DNA of 64,000 bases from the IMG/VR virus record IMGVR_UViG_3300050014_000619; one strand, 5' to 3'. Under the pieces are notes generated by a model. The model was given only the letters and a program-made list of their open reading frames with translations. It did no database searches and had not been told where the DNA came from. Origin of the DNA: a virus. This document shows, piece after piece, positions 4,551 through 33,955 of the stretch. How positions within the stretch are numbered: position 1 is the stretch's first letter; every line of letters begins with the position of its first letter. Position numbers and translations under genes: made by a program.

Positions 4551-4558
4551 GTATTTAT
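4551..4558 (+). promoter_or_regulatory. Putative phage late promoter motif GTATTTAT
   Basis: One of about 22 strand-matched copies upstream of starts. Confidence 0.65.
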
Positions 4559-24927: not shown

Positions 24928-25188
24928 ATGGCAGATAATACAACAGACCCAAGCAGACTTCTTGCTAATAGTGTACAGTTCAGAGATAAAAATGTTGCGA
25001 AGAATCGTTACAAAACCAACAACGAATATGTTGCTGGTCATCCAGACGCATTATCCACAGGTGATGAATTGGGTAAAGACGAATTAAATGGTAATACTGG
25101 TAGTGCAACTGATATTAAAGAAAGACAAAAAGAAATTGTCAAAAACAAATTTAATTCAAACAGAACATATAACGCAAGCAACGCATAA
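24928..25188 (+). CDS. Hypothetical protein
   Basis: GTATTTAT motif upstream; two NxY/F..N..Y repeats; HPDALSTGDELGK. Confidence 0.6.
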   Translation: MADNTTDPSRLLANSVQFRDKNVAKNRYKTNNEYVAGHPDALSTGDELGKDELNGNTGSATDIKERQKEIVKNKFNSNRTYNASNA

Positions 25189-26114
25189 TGTTGAGTGAGG
25201 CTAAAATACTGTTCGAGAATATCAGACATTTTCGCCAGCTTCTTAGCGAAGCTGTTAGCGATAGTGTAATCGTTGATGCAATTAACGAGCATAAATATCT
25301 TTATATTTATTATGAAGGTGAGACAACTCAAGAAACTGGTTATCGAACAATCAGACCATTCGTTTTAGGTAAATTGAAAAACGGTAATTTAGCACTGAGA
25401 GCTTGGCAGGATAAGGGTAGAAGTGATAGTCTCAGGGCAGATTCTCCAAGAAACAGATTACATCACGAACATGAATTTGATGAAGGCAAAACAAAACCGG
25501 GTTGGCGTTTATTCCTTGTTGATAACATTAAATCAGCATATCCTACTGGTGTGAAATTTAATAAAAAAGATGGTAGCGTAATGATACCGACTGGTTATAA
25601 AGAGCATGATAAGTCAATGACTGGTGGAATCGTTGCATTTATTTCGGCAAATGGTAGAGAAGAAATGCAAGCAAGTGGTACAACAGGTACAACTACACAA
25701 AAAATTCCGAGATACGAGAAGTTCAAGAATGCCGATATTAATAAGAGGAAACTCACGAAAGCTGATGTCATTGGTTTATACGATATTGCTACACGTGTTA
25801 TGAAAAAATCAATTAATAGGTTCTTTGTATCAATTGATGATCAGAATTATTATTACTTACAGGATAAGAATATTAAAGCCAGATTTCCACAGAATGCAAT
25901 TGTTGGTGATCTTGATGTATTATATGATCAGTTTGTAAGAAAACAGCCACAAGAGCCACAGCAATTGAGCCAGACTGATGCTTATATGAAACAGGAATTG
26001 GATAAACTTGCTAAGAGTACAGCAGCAAATAATGCAAAAACACCTGAAGAACAAAAAATGATGAAAGAAAATGAAAAATTCCCTGTTGACAAAAGGACCT
26101 TTTTCAAAATCTAA
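25188..26114 (+). CDS. WYL-like domain protein
   Basis: IYYEG..GYRTIRPFVLG..LRAWQ..GWRLFLVDNI. Confidence 0.65.
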   Translation: MLSEAKILFENIRHFRQLLSEAVSDSVIVDAINEHKYLYIYYEGETTQETGYRTIRPFVLGKLKNGNLALRAWQDKGRSDSLRADSPRNRLHHEHEFDEGKTKPGWRLFLVDNIKSAYPTGVKFNKKDGSVMIPTGYKEHDKSMTGGIVAFISANGREEMQASGTTGTTTQKIPRYEKFKNADINKRKLTKADVIGLYDIATRVMKKSINRFFVSIDDQNYYYLQDKNIKARFPQNAIVGDLDVLYDQFVRKQPQEPQQLSQTDAYMKQELDKLAKSTAANNAKTPEEQKMMKENEKFPVDKRTFFKI

Positions 26115-26146: not shown

Positions 26147-26812
26147 ATGGCAAAACCCGATTTAAATAAACTAAAAAACGAAATTGATAGTCGTAAAAGG
26201 GAAAGAAATACTACCTTAACACCTAATGGTGAAAATATTGCACCACGTGATGTATTTCTTAACGGCTTGCTTGAATCATATAAGACTGGTAGAGAAACTA
26301 CTGCAAGTGCATTAGTTAAGACCGTTAATAACAAAGCTGCTGCAAAGAGTGGTGAAAAAAATCTTCAAATTACTGAAGCACCAGTACAACAGCCACAGCA
26401 ACCACAAGGCACTCCAAGAAGAATAACTGATGTTGATATGTCACCTGAAAGGGATGAATTATTATGGGCAGAAGTTGAAAGAAAGAAAAAAATGACATTG
26501 GCTGAACAGATTGGTGATTTCAGGAATACACCACCAGTGGGCGCACCAATGAATAACAATGTTAAACAGCCATCTGCTCTCAATGAGGTATATTTAACAG
26601 AGAACATGAAGAAATACATGGATAATTATCTGGTTGAAAATCTGGGTCCTGTTTTCGAAGAAGCTATTAAAGGTACAATAATTGAAATGTACGCTGCAGA
26701 ACGAATCAAAGAAGTTCTGGCAGAGAATAAAGATATGATAAAAGAATTGGTCAAAGAAACCATTCGAGAAATTCAAAAAGCTAACGCAGATAAAAAGAAA
26801 GCACAATCTTAA
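26147..26812 (+). CDS. Hypothetical protein, possible head/scaffold-associated
   Basis: GTATTTAT motif upstream; LNE/LTE and C-terminal IKELVKETIREI. Confidence 0.55.
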   Translation: MAKPDLNKLKNEIDSRKRERNTTLTPNGENIAPRDVFLNGLLESYKTGRETTASALVKTVNNKAAAKSGEKNLQITEAPVQQPQQPQGTPRRITDVDMSPERDELLWAEVERKKKMTLAEQIGDFRNTPPVGAPMNNNVKQPSALNEVYLTENMKKYMDNYLVENLGPVFEEAIKGTIIEMYAAERIKEVLAENKDMIKELVKETIREIQKANADKKKAQS

Positions 26813-26828
26813 TTGTGCTTTCTTTTTT
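26794..26828 (+). terminator. Rho-independent terminator
   Basis: AAAGAAAGCACAA/TTGTGCTTTCTTT stem plus T-tract. Confidence 0.75.
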
Positions 26829-26840
26829 GATAGTAAGTTT

Positions 26841-26848
26841 GTATTTAT
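26841..26848 (+). promoter_or_regulatory. Putative late promoter GTATTTAT
   Basis: Between terminator and polyprotein start. Confidence 0.65.
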
Positions 26849-26871
26849 GAATATAGTATAAATCTTCGATA

Positions 26872-29800
26872 ATGGTTAAACTAAAAATATTCGAATTATA
26901 CAACAATGCCGATGGAAATGACGATATGCTTTCTGATATCGGTAATGTTGGCATGGAAGTAAGACAAGGCATGTGGACATTTATGCCTGATAGAGTTGGC
27001 GATAATAGTCCAGCAATTCAAGAAGACGAAAATTTTAAATCTCCACAGGTAGACCAAGGTGTGTTAAAAAATCACGCATATGCCAGAGAATTAGCATATA
27101 CTTTTGCAAGAAAAATTGGCATACAAATAACAAAAGATTTGGGTGGCGGTGGAAATGGACGTGCATTCGAAATTAGTCCAGAAGTTGTGCTAAAATTAAC
27201 TACCGATGTCAGTGAAGTAGATGCTGCAATTAAAACGCTTAGAGAAGAACCAAAACATCTTGCTGAGATTTATGGAATTTATAAACTCATTGATACTGAG
27301 AAAAATGCATCGTTATATGCCATACTTCAAGAGCACATTCAAGAAAAACCATTGGAAAAATTCAGGGAATATAATAAAATAATAAATGCTATTATGCCAA
27401 GTGGTCTGGGACTTGAAGATTTTTTTGGTTTAATGAGATTACCTAAAAAATTTAATTATAGTGATTTAGCTGAAAAAGCAAAATTACTTCTTACAGATAC
27501 TCCAGAAGCGAACATTAATGAACAAGATAGAAAGGAAGCATATAATTATCTTATTGCATTACTTGATATAAGACAGGAATTAATTGATTATGGTATTAAA
27601 TCAACTGACTATTGGACTATTGCAAATCTTGGATATGATAAAGGTATATTAAAATATTTTGATGTCGGTGGATATGTTGCACCAAAACCAGAAATTCCAA
27701 AAGATCATGTGGTAACGTTGCCTGAAGATGGTAGCGCAAAATTTAGCACAGATAATGGTATTGGTCAAGATGATGAACCACCATATGATAACAATGACAC
27801 TTCACCCTCAATAGAAAATGATCTCAATGCAAATTTAAATATGCGTGAAGATTTGGAATACAATCACGTTAGTGATGCAACACAAGATCAATACGAGCTT
27901 GATGAAAGACAATTATCTTCAATGGCTGGAAGCAGTACTGTTGAAGTTAAACAGAAATGCAGATTAGCTGGAAATGGCAATACTTCAACCGCTTGCAATC
28001 AGGGTGATATAAGAAATCTGAATATCAAGCCATTGCATGAAAGTGCAAGTCTTAATATACCCGAAAATCTCAGTGGATATGATTCACTTAAAATAATGAA
28101 TGGTGATCAGACTGTAGGTGAGGTTGGAATTATGGACAGAGGTGTACATGGTGGAAATCATTATATTGCAATTGACAAAATCTTTATTAATAAGGAATTT
28201 AGGGGTAACGATTATGCAAATGATGCAATGAAATTGATTTTTGCTTATGCTGATAAAAATAATTTAATTGTTACCTTGACACCAGATAATATCTGGGGTG
28301 CAAGTGTACCAAAGTTAAAAGCATGGTATAAATCACTGGGATTTATTGAAAATAAAGGCAAGAAAAAAGATTTCCAGACTATGCAGTTAATGTATAGATT
28401 ACCAAAAACTCCTACAAATCTCAATGAAGACATTGACCCTAAAACAATTAATACAAACAGAAGGGCAATATATTCCGTAATTACTGGCAAAAGAAAATTG
28501 GCATTTGGTGAAGTTGATAAGCCATTAGGACAGGCAATTGAGAAAAGAGGTTTTGGTATAATACCAGTGAGAATGACTTCACGTCATGGTATGATGAGCA
28601 TAGTTTATAATAAAGATTCATATGAAAATGCAAGAAAACTTTATGAAATAGCTAAGACGCATGGTGATTATCTTACAGATAATACGGCAAGTGAAGCTCG
28701 TGAAATAGGTAGATTATTAGAATATAAAGAAGAAAGTATTGCAGAATATATAAAACAGAAATATGGTGACAGAGCATTATCTACACATGAAAAATCACCA
28801 GAAGACTTCGATGATCTTTCTGAAGATATGGATTTTTGGGATTTGAATGATTTAAATGAAGAGAACTTTCCAGCATTCGAAAAACAAATCGAAAAAGATG
28901 AAATTACTCACGGTCTTGATAAAAAAGTTCTTTATGAACAAGATGATTTTAAAGTATGTGTAGTTAATGGCGATGCTGTCAGAGGTAATGGTTTTGATGA
29001 ATGGGTAGATGGTGGTCATCATTATGTAGATGCTGATTTACCGAAAGACGAACAAAAATACGCTAAATTTATTCCAGAGGATGAAATTTGGATTGATGAC
29101 GTATTTTTATCAAAACCAAATGATATGGCAGCAATTATACTTCATGAAAAACTCGAAAGATATTTAATGAAGAATTATGGTATTGAATACGAAAATGCAC
29201 ACACAGATTATGCAAATAAAGCAGAAGTTGTCTTCAGAAAATTAGTTAAGGATGGTACTGGCTCACTTATAAGCCAGAAAATTTTCGATGCATTTGTAAA
29301 TAAATTTATACAAGACCATTCCGATAAAAAAGTTCATGAAGGAGTAGCAGATGTAGCTGCAGATAAACAGTTTGGTATACAACAACCACATGCGGGTTTT
29401 GAAGACAAATTCAACAGGGAAGAAAATGAAGAAGATGTAGTCTTTGCTGGTGATACTGATGGTATGATAATAATAAGAAATCCCAAATCATGGAAAAACA
29501 TATATGGCTATGTTAGGGGAATTATTGACCCAGAAGGTAATCTTTATATTCAACAAAAACCCGTAGGCATTCACTTTGAAATGCTTGAGGAATTGAATAA
29601 ATTAGGACTTGTTGACAATGAAGCAGATTGGGATGAAAAATTACCAACGAACTTTCTTACAGTACAACGATATTTAAGGTCGAATAAAATTTTACTCGGT
29701 GAATCAAACTCACCAAGATATCCAGAACCAAGAGACCCAAATTCTATGTTTTGGAGCAAAATTCCACCAGTTGAGGTAGCTATCCCATATTATCAGGCTT

Positions 29801-31197
29801 TCTTAGATAAGGCTAAAAAGAAAAATCCCAGCATGGATTTTATTAATGAGATAATAAGTACATATAGGAAACAGCATGAGAATGATGAAACGTTTGGTGG
29901 TAATGATTTTAATGAAAATTTAAAAAATTCTGATAATCATAATGATTTATATGTAGAAAATGTTAACTTTGCAAAAAATGATTCGATGAATGAGAATGAA
30001 ATAATGTCATTAGATGATTTGCCTTTCAAAGATGATGTTGAACGTCAAGGCGGTAAGGTATATAGTGTTGGTGGTGCAGTAAGGGATAAATTTTTAGGTA
30101 AAGAATCTAAGGACTTGGATGTTATTGTTACTGGCATTCCACTTGATAAATTGGAGAGAATCATATCGAGATATGGTGTTGTTAACTCAGTTGGTAAATC
30201 ATATGGTGTGTTGAAGTTCAAGCCACGTGGTGCTCCTGAAGACAGTGAAGATATTGATATTGTTATTCCACGTACAGATACCCCAACAGGCGGTGGTGGA
30301 TATCAGGATTTTGATATTCAATCAGATCATACCATACCACTTGAAAAAGATTTGGAACGTAGGGACTTTACCATTAATGCAATGGCAAGAGATAGAAATG
30401 GCGAAATAATTGACCCTTATGGTGGTCAGGAAGACCTGAAGAATAAAATTATTCGTGCAGTTAATCCCGAAGCATTTAGTGATGACCCACTGAGAATGTT
30501 ACGTGCTGTGCAATTTGCATGCCGTTTCGGTTTTACTATTGAGCCACACACAATGAAAATGATCAAAGACAATGTTGCGGAAATCAAACGTATTTCTGCT
30601 GAAAGATACTTAATTGAATTTGATAAGATCATTAAAAAGGGCAATATAGTAATGGGTGTTGAACTACTTATGGAAACAGGCTTGTTTTCACAGATATTTA
30701 ATGCACAGCCAAAAAATGTTACTCCTTTATTTGCCAAAGTTAAGACAATGGCTGAATTTCTTTATTTGCTTATGACTGGTTCTGTAAATAATCCTGCAGA
30801 ATTCTATTTGGAACATTTTGCAAGTGATGAAGATGCAAAAAGAAGTAAGAACTACAAAGAGATTCGTGCACTTGAAACAGGATTTGAAAGCGGTGAAGCA
30901 ACAAACTTAATCGAAGCACGTTCAATTGCACATAATATGTATCTTATATTTCCACAAGTGTTGGAAAGCCAGATATTACCAAACATAATCAGGGTTGCAT
31001 CGCAGGAATTACTTCAAGGTAAATATCCTAAGACTGTGAATGAATTGGCGGTTAATGGTAATGATTTAATGGAACTTGGTTTACAAGGTAAAGCAGTTGG
31101 TGATATGCAAAAATCATTATTATTGAAGATTTATTCAAATAAAGTTATGAATAATAAAGAAGATTTACTATCTTTGGCGGGTCAAAATGGAAAATAA
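26872..31197 (+). CDS. Multidomain polyprotein: protein-kinase-like + GNAT acetyltransferase + unknown domains + class II CCA-adding tRNA nucleotidyltransferase
   Basis: Kinase GGGGNG..VLKLT..DYWTIAN..YFD (~27100-27680); GNAT FINKEFRGND..WYKSLGF (~28045-28420); HEKLE domain; CCA VGGAVRD..DLD, DLERRDFTINAM, DDPLRMLRA, LAVNGNDLM (~30000-31190). Confidence 0.85.
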   Translation: MVKLKIFELYNNADGNDDMLSDIGNVGMEVRQGMWTFMPDRVGDNSPAIQEDENFKSPQVDQGVLKNHAYARELAYTFARKIGIQITKDLGGGGNGRAFEISPEVVLKLTTDVSEVDAAIKTLREEPKHLAEIYGIYKLIDTEKNASLYAILQEHIQEKPLEKFREYNKIINAIMPSGLGLEDFFGLMRLPKKFNYSDLAEKAKLLLTDTPEANINEQDRKEAYNYLIALLDIRQELIDYGIKSTDYWTIANLGYDKGILKYFDVGGYVAPKPEIPKDHVVTLPEDGSAKFSTDNGIGQDDEPPYDNNDTSPSIENDLNANLNMREDLEYNHVSDATQDQYELDERQLSSMAGSSTVEVKQKCRLAGNGNTSTACNQGDIRNLNIKPLHESASLNIPENLSGYDSLKIMNGDQTVGEVGIMDRGVHGGNHYIAIDKIFINKEFRGNDYANDAMKLIFAYADKNNLIVTLTPDNIWGASVPKLKAWYKSLGFIENKGKKKDFQTMQLMYRLPKTPTNLNEDIDPKTINTNRRAIYSVITGKRKLAFGEVDKPLGQAIEKRGFGIIPVRMTSRHGMMSIVYNKDSYENARKLYEIAKTHGDYLTDNTASEAREIGRLLEYKEESIAEYIKQKYGDRALSTHEKSPEDFDDLSEDMDFWDLNDLNEENFPAFEKQIEKDEITHGLDKKVLYEQDDFKVCVVNGDAVRGNGFDEWVDGGHHYVDADLPKDEQKYAKFIPEDEIWIDDVFLSKPNDMAAIILHEKLERYLMKNYGIEYENAHTDYANKAEVVFRKLVKDGTGSLISQKIFDAFVNKFIQDHSDKKVHEGVADVAADKQFGIQQPHAGFEDKFNREENEEDVVFAGDTDGMIIIRNPKSWKNIYGYVRGIIDPEGNLYIQQKPVGIHFEMLEELNKLGLVDNEADWDEKLPTNFLTVQRYLRSNKILLGESNSPRYPEPRDPNSMFWSKIPPVEVAIPYYQAFLDKAKKKNPSMDFINEIISTYRKQHENDETFGGNDFNENLKNSDNHNDLYVENVNFAKNDSMNENEIMSLDDLPFKDDVERQGGKVYSVGGAVRDKFLGKESKDLDVIVTGIPLDKLERIISRYGVVNSVGKSYGVLKFKPRGAPEDSEDIDIVIPRTDTPTGGGGYQDFDIQSDHTIPLEKDLERRDFTINAMARDRNGEIIDPYGGQEDLKNKIIRAVNPEAFSDDPLRMLRAVQFACRFGFTIEPHTMKMIKDNVAEIKRISAERYLIEFDKIIKKGNIVMGVELLMETGLFSQIFNAQPKNVTPLFAKVKTMAEFLYLLMTGSVNNPAEFYLEHFASDEDAKRSKNYKEIRALETGFESGEATNLIEARSIAHNMYLIFPQVLESQILPNIIRVASQELLQGKYPKTVNELAVNGNDLMELGLQGKAVGDMQKSLLLKIYSNKVMNNKEDLLSLAGQNGK

Positions 31198-32128
31198 TAG
31201 AAAAGAAATATTGATTTGTAATGAATGTAATAAAGAATTTAATTCATTAAAAGGATTGAAAAATCATAATAGATACGGATGTAGTACCAAATTACATTCA
31301 AATTATTTTAAATATTGCCCAATATGTAATGAAATAATACATTATGAAAGTAAAACTAAATATGATTATGCAATTAAAAATGATTCAAAATGCCATAAAT
31401 GTGGTAATATTGGTAGAGAAGTGTCTGAAAACACAAAAATTAAAACATCTAAAACATTAAAAGAAAAATATGATAATGGCACACTAATTCCAAACATGAT
31501 AGGCGCACATTCAAATGAATCAAGAAAAAAACAATCTGCAAAGAGAAAGAATTGTAAGTTAACTGAATCGCATAAATTAAATATTTCGATTGGTTTAAAT
31601 AAATCTGAAAATTTTAAAATATCCGTACATTCAAAAGAAAGAGGTAATAAAATTTCAAAAAAATTAACAAATAAAAAATTTTCAAAAGAACATATCATTA
31701 AACTTTCTGAATCACATGCAAATGTTGCGAACGAAAATAATCCGTTTTATAATAAAAGTCATACTAATGAAGCTAAGAATAAAATGAGAATTAGTGCCAT
31801 TGAAAGAATTAGATTAAATAAGTTTGAAAATAATCAAATAGTGCCGTTTTATAACAAAAGAGGTTGTGAATATTTTAATAATCTAATGAAAATCAATAAT
31901 TGTTTCATACAACACGCTGAAAATGGTGGTGAATTTTATATTAAGAAATTAGGATATTTTGTTGATGGATATGACGAAAAAAACAATATTGTTTATGAAT
32001 GGGATGAAAAACGTCATTTTCAAAAAGGTAAATTAATTGAAAGGGATATTATTAGAGAAAATGAAATTACCAATTTACTAAAATGTGCTTTTATTAGAAT
32101 TAAAGAAAGTGAGGTAAATAATGATTAA
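31187..32128 (+). mobile_element. Homing-endonuclease-like gene (Zn fingers, NUMOD3-like repeats, PD-(D/E)XK C-terminus)
   Basis: CNEC, CPIC, CHKC; HS.E...K.S repeats; NPFYNKSHT; VDGYD..VYEWDE. Confidence 0.75.
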
Positions 32129-32726
32129 GAAAATTATAGTTGAGGAAATTAAAAAATTTTTCTTAAATGAATTTGCTTATCCTGAAATGAGACCAGAAGA
32201 AAAGAATACTTGGGACATAAATGGAGAAAATGTTGACATTAATTTCTTTGTACATAAATATGATGAATGGAATCATCAGGGTGGTGAAAATAGTGGTTAT
32301 AAAGACCCTTCAGAAGCATCAGTGTTAGAATTTATAGAGAATAACTATGAAGATTTTACACATGATGAAAAATTAAAAAAAGAGTTGCTTTGGGCATTGA
32401 CAGATCGAGAAGTTTTAAATGAGAATGAATCTAAATATAATAAAGAAAAAGAAGCATTAATGAAATCAAAAAGTATTGATGCTGAAATGAAAGAAAAGAT
32501 TCTAAAATATTTTACTGCTGGTTCAACATATAAAGAAGGTGGACATGTACATGGTTTAAGCAAGCCAAAAGAATTAATGGACAAAACATCTAAAACAGAA
32601 GGTGTTAGTATGGGTGCAGATAAAGACGGATTCTTTGTATATACACATCGTCAAAGGTCTAAGTCATATGAATCACCCGAAAAAATATCAATAAAAGACA
32701 TTGAATTTACTGAAAGTACTGGCTAA
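32121..32726 (+). CDS. Two-domain hypothetical protein, putative internal head protein
   Basis: N-terminal IKKIIVEEIKKFFLNE; internal VLNE linker. Confidence 0.55.
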   Translation: MIKKIIVEEIKKFFLNEFAYPEMRPEEKNTWDINGENVDINFFVHKYDEWNHQGGENSGYKDPSEASVLEFIENNYEDFTHDEKLKKELLWALTDREVLNENESKYNKEKEALMKSKSIDAEMKEKILKYFTAGSTYKEGGHVHGLSKPKELMDKTSKTEGVSMGADKDGFFVYTHRQRSKSYESPEKISIKDIEFTESTG

Positions 32727-33431: not shown

Positions 33432-33575
33432 ATGAAAAGCAAAGACAAAACAAAAACAGTTACACCAATGGATGTAGCAAGATTTGTTGGTGCTGAAAAA
33501 GACTATCAAGATGTTTTAAATAAGAATAGGGGTGCTTTGGTTGAAAATTTTTATAGCTTATTGAAAAAATTATGA
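33432..33575 (+). CDS. 47-aa protein missing from the ORF track
   Basis: MKSKDKTKTVTPMDVARFVG...LVENFYSLLKKL; directly after GTATTTAT; ATGA overlap with the next gene. Confidence 0.55.
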   Translation: MKSKDKTKTVTPMDVARFVGAEKDYQDVLNKNRGALVENFYSLLKKL

Positions 33576-33955
33576 GTAATATTTCTTATAGTGCAGTAGT
33601 TCTTGATGAAAGTTCAAGAAACCGATTAATCAGAAGATTCGAGTCATTAATACCCGAAGGCTGGGAAGTTGTTGCACATCATGCCACAATAAAGTTGGGC
33701 GAACTTGACCCAAATGAAAAATGGATGATTAATGAAGAAATTACATTGAGTGTAAATGATTTTGCAATGGATGATAAGGTTATGGCAGTTGGTGTTAGTG
33801 GCTCTGAAAGCCACAATGCCAAGCCACATATAACCATTGCTGTAAATCGACAAGCGGGTGGTAAACCAATGATGTCGAATAAATTAATTGACTGGAAAAA
33901 AATAAGAGTTCCCTTGGTGATAAGAGGAATCGTGACTGAAGTTGAATATAAGTAA
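33572..33955 (+). CDS. 2H phosphoesterase (2',3'-cyclic phosphodiesterase, tRNA-ligase CPD-like)
   Basis: Two HxT motifs (HATI, HITI), YSAVVLD start, KPMMSN. Confidence 0.8.
   Translation: MSNISYSAVVLDESSRNRLIRRFESLIPEGWEVVAHHATIKLGELDPNEKWMINEEITLSVNDFAMDDKVMAVGVSGSESHNAKPHITIAVNRQAGGKPMMSNKLIDWKKIRVPLVIRGIVTEVEYK

Follow-up and report, generated by a model that had tools for sequence, protein, structure and literature searches.

Bacteriophage T4 directs proteins to the interior of its head by means of 10-residue N-terminal leaders, which are removed at sites of the type recognized by the head protease gp21; this protease cuts after L/I-X-E (PMC9026906). Polyvalent proteins, described by Iyer, Burroughs, Anand, de Souza and Aravind (2017), join many disparate enzyme domains in extensively shuffled chains. 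They were predicted to be delivered with the DNA and to be processed by peptidases that are either zincin-like and embedded or C-terminal and assemblin-like; junction motifs for a head protease acting in trans are not described in the available part of that account (PMC5512222). We analysed a 64,000-nucleotide stretch of viral DNA (IMG/VR record IMGVR_UViG_3300050014_000619; hereafter the window), in which a single uninterrupted reading frame on the plus strand (26872–31197) encodes a protein of 1441 residues, P0001. An initial annotation of this DNA had read the protein as a cargo polyprotein that is packaged in the head, cut into separate enzymes during maturation and injected with the DNA. 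The sequence analysis reported here supports that interpretation: each of the computational tests proposed for it gave a favourable result, and it is from these that we infer packaging, cleavage and injection.

The polyprotein resembles the internal proteins of T4 known as IPI, IPII and IPIII and the T4 protein Alt in having a short N-terminal leader that ends in hydrophobic-x-Glu and in its L/I-X-E type of motif. A gp21-family protease and a gp23-family capsid protein are found in the T4 lineage and in the lineage of the polyprotein alike. T4 internal proteins and Alt carry host-takeover or anti-defence payloads, and modules of Alt's enzyme class, ART, occur in homologues of the polyprotein (PMC9026906). 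The T4 internal proteins are, however, single-domain proteins cut once or twice at their ends, whereas the polyprotein has at least six unrelated enzyme modules, about ten internal sites and a large chassis. The two show no sequence similarity, and cleavage and packaging of the polyprotein are predicted from its sequence.

Polyvalent proteins provide the second comparison. The available part of their description lists domain types also met in the polyprotein family, namely GNAT, Pol-beta-type nucleotidyltransferase, ART-PolyVal, ParB and a kinase without a C-terminal lobe, and delivery with the DNA is predicted for both groups (PMC5512222). Unlike polyvalent proteins, the polyprotein has at every joint a motif of the T4 head-protease type, expected to be cut in trans; its kinase-like module and its modules E, F and G have no Pfam family that matches the window sequence. 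In phiKZ-like giant phages, gp21-related proteases (phiKZ gp175, SPN3US gp245) cleave large sets of head-internal proteins after Glu, in some cases yielding several fragments, and the proteins are ejected into the host (PMC9026906, PMC5694885). The motif in that case is S/A/G-X-E, with which the breakpoints of the polyprotein family show no association (0.9 times expected), and the inner-body proteins are mostly structural, with activities unknown, and do not form strings of recognizable enzymes. Finally, the C-terminal 400 residues of the polyprotein are a normal member of the stand-alone phage tRNA nucleotidyltransferases (phrog_2244; jumbo-phage RNA-repair sets, PMC7824862). These are separate genes, whereas the polyprotein copy is the last module behind a conserved M/L/I-N-E. 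Our literature searches found no description of the polyprotein family or of polyvalent proteins delimited by protease sites. It is the proposed combination of polyvalent proteins with T4-type internal-protein processing that would be new, each having already been described separately.

Hydrophobic-x-Glu at the module junctions

A family search with residues 1–1050 retrieved 124 proteins of 800–2400 residues, encoded on contigs from metagenomes, the longest of 355 kb. In IMG/VR, 78 loci were found by an alignment-based scan, whereas a single-sequence scan for related loci returned none. The homologues were mosaics in which the three N-terminal modules (A, B and C) were nearly universal and were followed by varying module sets; in the window protein these are modules D to H. 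Further modules, in many orders, included 2H/Acb1-like phosphoesterases, ART-PolyVal, ParB and CPD. ART-PolyVal (PF18760) was present in homologues such as P0074 and absent from the window polyprotein.

The points at which similarity between these mosaics began and ended were concentrated at the motif hydrophobic-x-Glu. BLAST alignments ended in the query at residues 51/52 (77 ends of high-scoring segment pairs, HSPs), 285/286, 345 and 390/391, that is on the Glu (P1) or on P1', and started at 343/344, 388, 516/517, 820–823 and 1039, on the hydrophobic P3. In a query-independent test, 119 homologues were compared all against all and breakpoints were counted if seen in at least three comparisons. 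HSP ends fell on the Glu of [LIVMF]xE 687 times as compared with 98 in a random control, and HSP starts fell on P3 563 times as compared with 81, counts that are not of independent events because the homologues are related. The ratio of observed to expected breakpoints was 7.5 for [LIVM]xE, 0.9 for the phiKZ-type motif [AGS]xE, 0.8 for [LIVMF]xD and 0.3–0.6 for Gln, Lys or Asn at P1, with control motifs overall at 0.3–1.2 times expectation. In the alignments, hydrophobic-x-Glu flanked each module whichever neighbour stood to its left or right.

The motifs cited in the initial annotation were found where it had placed them: IQE at residues 49–51, MRE at 324–326, LDE at 343–345, LHE at 388–390 (28033–41), LNE at 517–519 (28420–28), LSE at 649–651 with LNE at 661–663 (28816–60), VHE at 821–823 (29332–40) and MNE at 1039–1041 (29986–94). 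Its list had missed two further conserved sites, which end at E8 and E285. The motif was kept at ten sites (E51, E285, E326, E345, E390, E519, E651, E663, E823 and E1041) in 69–99% of distinct homologue windows, as compared with 40% conservation of the median Glu of the protein. Retention was 99% at E285, 69% at E326, 85% at E345, 97% at E390, 93% at E519 and 92% at E1041. The pooled junction logo had Leu (33%), Ile (28%), Val (13%) and Met (12%) at P3, together 86%, and Asn (33%), Asp (13%) and Pro (10%) at P2; Glu stood at P1 in 93% and Asp in only 2% of windows. At the DNA level each junction was represented by 18–53 distinct 9-mers with at least eight different P3 codons. This diversity indicates selection on the peptide rather than on a recombination sequence, and recombination microhomology was rejected as the source of the motif.

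The junction sites lay in segments with a predicted local distance difference test score (pLDDT) below 50 between confidently folded AlphaFold2 domains. Within the linkers of the window protein (247 residues), [LIVMF]xE occurred 12 times, where linker composition predicts 5.9 ± 2.0 (P=0.005); the folded domains showed no excess, and the total for the whole protein, 43 versus 32 ± 4.6 in shuffles, was a modest excess. Two checks suggested at the outset thus came out in favour of the proposal: the domain borders of the AlphaFold model and the shuffling breaks of homologues coincide with [LIVM]xE, and the motif is more frequent in linkers than composition predicts.

Modules of the 1441-residue protein

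Domains were examined with AlphaFold2 run with family alignments, Pfam at curated cut-offs, PHROGs, Foldseek and VIA-align. AlphaFold2 gave confident folds for residues 57–288, 520–638, 663–818 and 852–1005, and pLDDT below 50 for residues 1–56, 289–352, 390–400, 639–662, 819–851 and 1006–1041. Apart from a weak GNAT, Pfam recognized only the nucleotidyltransferase at the C-terminus (PF01743, PF12627), in agreement with PHROGs.

The chassis opens with the leader MVKLKIFE (residues 1–8; 26872–26895), which ends in hydrophobic-x-Glu and is a candidate capsid-targeting or propeptide leader. Module A (residues 9–51, ending in IQE51; 26896–27024) is a conserved peptide with invariant residues G15, N16, D17, D18, L20, R31, M34, W35 and P39, and is predicted to be disordered (pLDDT ~25). 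The protein-kinase-like domain recognized in the initial annotation corresponds to module B (residues 52–285, ending in LPE285; 27025–27726), modelled with a pLDDT of ~90 over residues 57–288. Its 102 Foldseek matches in the PDB at E<=0.001 were all aminoglycoside phosphotransferases or protein kinases, with a probability of ~1.0. The catalytic residues are intact: K108, E115, N252 and D264 were invariant, D246 was nearly so, and G93 and G96 of the Gly-rich loop were conserved. The fold stops just past the DFG-like Asp264 and therefore has no C-lobe. The Pfam kinase families gave no sequence match to module B, and a search of its profile against PDB sequences gave spurious penicillin-binding-protein matches only, so that the fold search was needed. 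Module C (residues 286–390; 27727–28041), with sites at MRE326, LDE345 and LHE390, is mostly disordered (pLDDT below 50 for residues 289–352). The initial view of acidic linkers ending in hydrophobic-x-Glu holds as to the motifs; residues 286–390, however, are no loose linker but the most conserved part of the family, containing three of the sites. Module C was covered by 119–120 of 120 homologues with one copy per genome, and E345 served as the insertion point of other modules in some homologues. Residues 355–390 (27934–28041) form a conserved element, V-x-V-K-x-K-C-x-L-x-G-x-G-N-T-S-x-A-C-N-Q-G-D-I, whose two Cys, C363 and C375 (the latter followed by N-Q-G-D), are invariant. It was modelled with moderate confidence as a small beta structure and was the best pattern for retrieving relatives.

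Module D (residues 391–519, ending in LNE519; 28042–28428) is the probable GNAT acetyltransferase. This assignment leans on the collinear homologue P0003, which passes PF00583 (25.4 bits, cut-off 20.7), whereas the window protein itself stayed below the Pfam cut-off (PF13508, 16.7 bits, cut-off 27) and matched phrog_11975/10691 at 1e-11. The homologue P0074 has a GNAT module of its own at 46.7 bits, which may not be the same module as D.

Three domains had initially been left unassigned. All three are present as folds (residues 520–638, 663–818, with HEKLE, and 852–1005), and for one of them a related fold can be named. Module E (residues 520–651, followed by a 12-residue spacer so that two sites, LSE651 and LNE663, stand close together; 28429–28860) is NleE-like by fold in the AlphaFold2 model (pLDDT ~90 for residues 520–638). 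VIA-align matched it to NleE (4r29_A) with Z 10.3 and a root-mean-square deviation of 3.2 Å over 114 residues at 23% identity, and Foldseek agreed. The alignment covers NleE residues 83–220, the first ~80 residues of NleE having no counterpart. A further VIA-align match was to 2guk (Z 8.7), and in P0003 the Pfam NleE family scored 27.3 bits against a cut-off of 27. These structural searches used a three-domain model of E, F and G in which matches to module E prevailed, so that they bear very little on the folds of F and G.

Module F (residues 664–823, ending in VHE823; 28861–29340) is the 'HEKLE' domain, an alpha/beta domain with pLDDT 70–92. Its invariant residues H758-E759-x-x-E762, H777 and E785 are carried by two helices that follow one another behind a sheet of three strands, and it is probably metal-binding. 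Weak matches to PF02742, a DtxR-type metal-binding domain, were obtained for six of 11 members (best E 1e-4). Peptidase_M78 was the nearest named ESM Atlas cluster, at 0.79 and as a lead only, the other clusters being unnamed; the module F profile had no match among PDB sequences. The spacing H758-x3-E762-x14-H777 was invariant, and DtxR, presumably, has a His-Glu-His site of the same spacing. Module G (residues 824–1041, ending in MNE1041; 29341–29994) has a conserved start, GVAD, a folded core at residues 852–1005 (pLDDT 91–98) and a disordered tail (below 50 for residues 1006–1041). It had no Pfam, PDB-sequence or usable ESM Atlas match. Arrays of paralogous module G-type domains were seen in P0051, with up to five copies, and in other homologues, each copy behind hydrophobic-x-E followed by GVADKYAEK.

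The initial identification of a class II CCA-adding enzyme was confirmed at the level of the family. Module H (residues 1042–1441; 29995–31194) belongs to the CCA-adding/poly(A) polymerase family of class II nucleotidyltransferases: residues 1064–1276 matched PF01743 (73.7 bits, 2e-20, cut-off 23) and PF12627 (57.2 bits, 1e-15, cut-off 22), and phrog_2244, tRNA nucleotidyltransferase, matched at 8e-64. The catalytic motifs G1067-G-x-x-R1071-D, D1081-x-D1083 and R1163-R-D1165 were invariant in the family. The nucleotide-selecting motif of this family is E-D-x-x-R, and in module H it reads D1204-D-x-x-R1208. By sequence, module H is a CCA-adding-type nucleotidyltransferase, with CCA specificity predicted only.

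Head genes, promoter-like motif and neighbouring genes

The source record of the window is 83 kb long with a CheckV completeness of 25%, which implies a genome of ~330 kb. A gp21-like protease, whose presence was proposed as a check, was sought in relatives as well as in the window's own record. Peptidase_S77, the gp21 family, was above the Pfam cut-off in all 11 polyprotein-carrying relatives that are at least 90% complete (299–365 kb), and all 11 encode a gp23-type capsid protein; such a protease was thus found in the relatives and not in the 25% fragment, which lacks the head module. These relatives are of the same lineage as the window, their DNA polymerases being 48–75% identical. In the five relatives searched, the gp23-family capsid gene lay a few kb from the protease gene. 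The capsid protein, which has distant kin in more than 2500 T4-like phage records, has a conserved M-I-N-E ~25 residues ahead of its folded core; BLAST left the N-terminal propeptide unaligned to T4-like capsids and so gave this M-I-N-E no position relative to the cleavage site of T4. A scaffold-like protein of 512–551 residues, encoded between protease and capsid, had the highest motif density, 5.3–6.4 per 100 residues. In two relatives (L084/L085, G002:C1:63143-64738, and G006:C1:295747-297414) the halves of the protease match were ~1 kb apart in one frame of 615–653 residues, as compared with 235–265 residues elsewhere. The two halves are thus separated by sequence inserted in frame, which may be an intein or an additional domain.

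In the window protein the leader MVKLKIFE is followed by LYNNADGNDD, and E8 together with its hydrophobic P3 was kept in 98% of aligned homologues. All short-form homologues had a leader of 7–14 residues ending in hydrophobic-x-E before LYNxADGNDD. A further 83 long-form homologues start with MTYxEF (M-T-Y-x-E/D-F; e.g. L011:9380, L002:9374), a start that resembles in sequence the 10-residue T4 capsid-targeting sequence MKTYQEFIAE (PMC8442874). At their N-terminus the long forms have an additional domain, absent from the window protein, in which a Gly-loop/VLK signature occurs for a second time. The frame at 26147–26812, immediately upstream, was considered as the missing domain and rejected, as it had similarity to no homologue.

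The polyprotein gene forms a transcription unit by itself. Behind the end of the upstream gene at 26812 come a terminator-like hairpin, with a T-run, and then the promoter-like motif GTATTTAT at 26841–26848 (hairpin and motif together spanning 26795–26848 on the plus strand), 31 nucleotides before the ATG; the initial observation of an open frame behind this motif was thus correct. TATAAAT at 26857 is probably incidental. Among 24 plus-strand copies of GTATTTAT(A) in the window (e.g. at 4551, 9156, 23466, 26116, 26841, 42184, 47221 and 51802), 17 lay 15–60 nucleotides upstream of a gene start, the distance being 22–51 nucleotides for many genes. The genes behind GTATTTAT included a gp25-like baseplate gene and large unannotated genes that are possibly structural, and the motif was absent before the helicase, DNA polymerase and primase genes. 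In eight relatives it preceded the polyprotein gene with the same spacing; it also preceded the scaffold-capsid operon in the two relatives examined and a portal-like gene in one. This distribution fits late co-expression with head genes and is not proof of it. The T4 late promoter TATAAATA had no association with gene starts in the window.

Upstream of the polyprotein gene lie helicase, DNA polymerase and NUDIX hydrolase genes, and baseplate genes lie further downstream. DNA polymerase and NUDIX genes stood upstream of the polyprotein in 66 loci of relatives. Within the first 35 residues of a 308-residue protein encoded two genes upstream (25188–26114), hydrophobic-x-Glu occurs four times (MLSE, ILFE, LLSE, AINE). 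This protein, which matched no family, may likewise be processed in the head. Membership of the lineage in the freshwater bS21 huge-phage clade was rejected, Ribosomal_S21 being found in none of five relatives.

Immediately downstream, on the plus strand, modules that are fused in homologues occurred as separate genes. A 201-residue module (32121–32726) was 66–76% identical by blastp to C-terminal parts of 68 homologues, in which it is fused after the CCA module. Its leader has been retained, with hydrophobic-x-Glu occurring twice (MIKKIIVE, FFLNE). Between it and the polyprotein, overlapping both by 8–11 nucleotides, is wedged a homing-endonuclease-like gene (31187–32128) with NUMOD3 (PF07460, 27.4 bits, above cut-off) and a C2H2-like zinc finger. 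Most simply read, its insertion split the polyprotein at a module junction. A second detached module, a CPD/2H phosphoesterase of 127 residues (33572–33955; PF08302, 29.1 bits, above cut-off), forms the C-terminus of 42 homologues (blastp 58–64%). The occurrence of fused modules as separate genes indicates that covalent linkage is not needed for their function.

Predicted processing, its alternatives and implications

We consider it probable that the protein is a head-loaded cargo polyprotein of a T4-superfamily jumbo phage, cut by a gp21-type protease at about ten sites and delivered as folded pieces with the DNA. It would consist of a constant N-terminal chassis (leader, disordered peptide A, truncated kinase-fold domain and the disordered peptides of module C) and a variable payload string, in this case GNAT, the NleE-like domain, two domains of unknown function and the CCA-adding-type enzyme. 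The gene would share its promoter class with the scaffold and capsid genes, and leader and chassis would bring the polyprotein into the prohead core. There the prohead protease would cut after the Glu of [L/I/V/M]-x-E at about ten exposed junctions, freeing separate enzymes and small acidic peptides; the predicted pieces are of about 8, 43, 234, 41, 19, 45, 129, 132, 12, 160, 218 and 400 residues. The enzymes would remain in the head and accompany the DNA into the cell, ahead of any phage gene expression, to repair tRNA 3' ends and modify host targets.

Several points weigh against this reading. Cleavage, packaging, retention, ejection and the targets of the enzymes are steps that we infer, and the cleavage specificity of the protease of this lineage is assumed by analogy with T4. 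The breakpoint counts, as already said, come from related sequences, and [LIVMF]xE near protein N-termini across the window was about as frequent as expected from composition, with no enrichment. The window's own 83 kb record gave no Peptidase_S77 match, the whole head module being missing from this fragment. The polyprotein gene adjoins replication and nucleotide-metabolism genes and no head genes. GTATTTAT also precedes endonuclease genes and small unknown genes, for which reason 'late promoter' is a tentative label for it, and the head protease gene of relatives carries CTATTTAT / CTATTTATA in place of GTATTTAT. The detached 2H module (33572) has no leader, and at least that module may thus act without packaging. 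Finally, the clade defined by the chassis is uncultivated and has no cultured relative: among GenBank phages, megablast of the gene and tblastn of residues 52–390 gave no match, and only module H had a resemblance (511 phage records, 22–43% identity).

Some of these points would also suit a cytoplasmic polyprotein, cut at the same motif outside the capsid, whether by a different protease specific for Glu or by free head protease, and supplying RNA-repair and host-modifying enzymes in a fixed ratio. The position of the gene among replication and nucleotide-metabolism genes, with its conserved synteny, the leaderless 2H module and the ability of modules to work as separate genes are all consistent with such a protein. 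We nevertheless regard it as unlikely. The junction motif fits the T4 head-protease logo while the control motifs do not, and it is in the prohead core that the T4 protease is active (PMC9026906). Pfam, the AlphaFold2 model and Foldseek showed no other protease domain in the chassis, and the leader and promoter-like motif are held in common with head genes.

We give still less credence to an uncleaved multi-domain enzyme that works as one chain, as other fused RNA-repair enzymes do, with hydrophobic-x-Glu as a linker or domain-capping feature or as a footprint of recombination. Unprocessed multi-domain RNA-repair and polyvalent proteins do exist, an example being the virion RNA polymerase of N4, packaged without being cut (PMC5512222), and the motif total of the whole protein is just modestly above that of shuffles. 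A recombination footprint is contradicted by conservation at the level of amino-acid class with diverse codons. Linker chemistry alone does not explain the preference for Glu over Asp at P1, and the motif is kept in disordered linkers, between unrelated folds and in every combination of neighbours. Division of the chain at a junction by an inserted gene is moreover tolerated. Self-processing by module F, as a variant zincin-like metallopeptidase, is highly improbable: its topology (helix, three strands, H-E-x-x-E helix, helix with H and E), the proximity of Peptidase_M78 and the zincin-like processing predicted in the available account of polyvalent proteins (PMC5512222) would agree with it, but the HEKLE domain is present in only about one-third of homologues while the junction motif is universal, its motif is HExxE instead of HExxH, its sole sequence signal is the weak PF02742 match, and no peptidase stands out among the structural matches of the three-domain model, which module E dominated.

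If the polyprotein is indeed loaded into the head and cut there, the lineage may deliver effectors in a 'plug-and-play' manner. We put at about even the chances that, in a large uncultivated clade of T4-superfamily jumbo phages, the chassis loads the prohead and any module placed between [L/I/V/M]-x-E separators is released and injected. Polyvalent proteins and head-protease processing would thereby come under a single readable rule, with exchangeable cargo modules marked off by protease sites. The payloads would include kinase, acetyltransferase, NleE-like, 2H/Acb1-like and ADP-ribosyltransferase modules together with two families without known relatives; the truncated kinase, the NleE-like domain and the two domains of unknown function are candidate early-acting counter-defence enzymes. 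With a CCA-adding enzyme among the payloads, tRNA repair would begin before any phage gene is expressed. A natural multi-cargo counterpart of T4 leader-based packaging, which is already a delivery tool, could also serve protein delivery. The repertoire of effectors that such phages inject would be readable directly from sequence, and which proteins uncultivated giant phages inject, and in what form, becomes testable from sequence with exact termini predicted.

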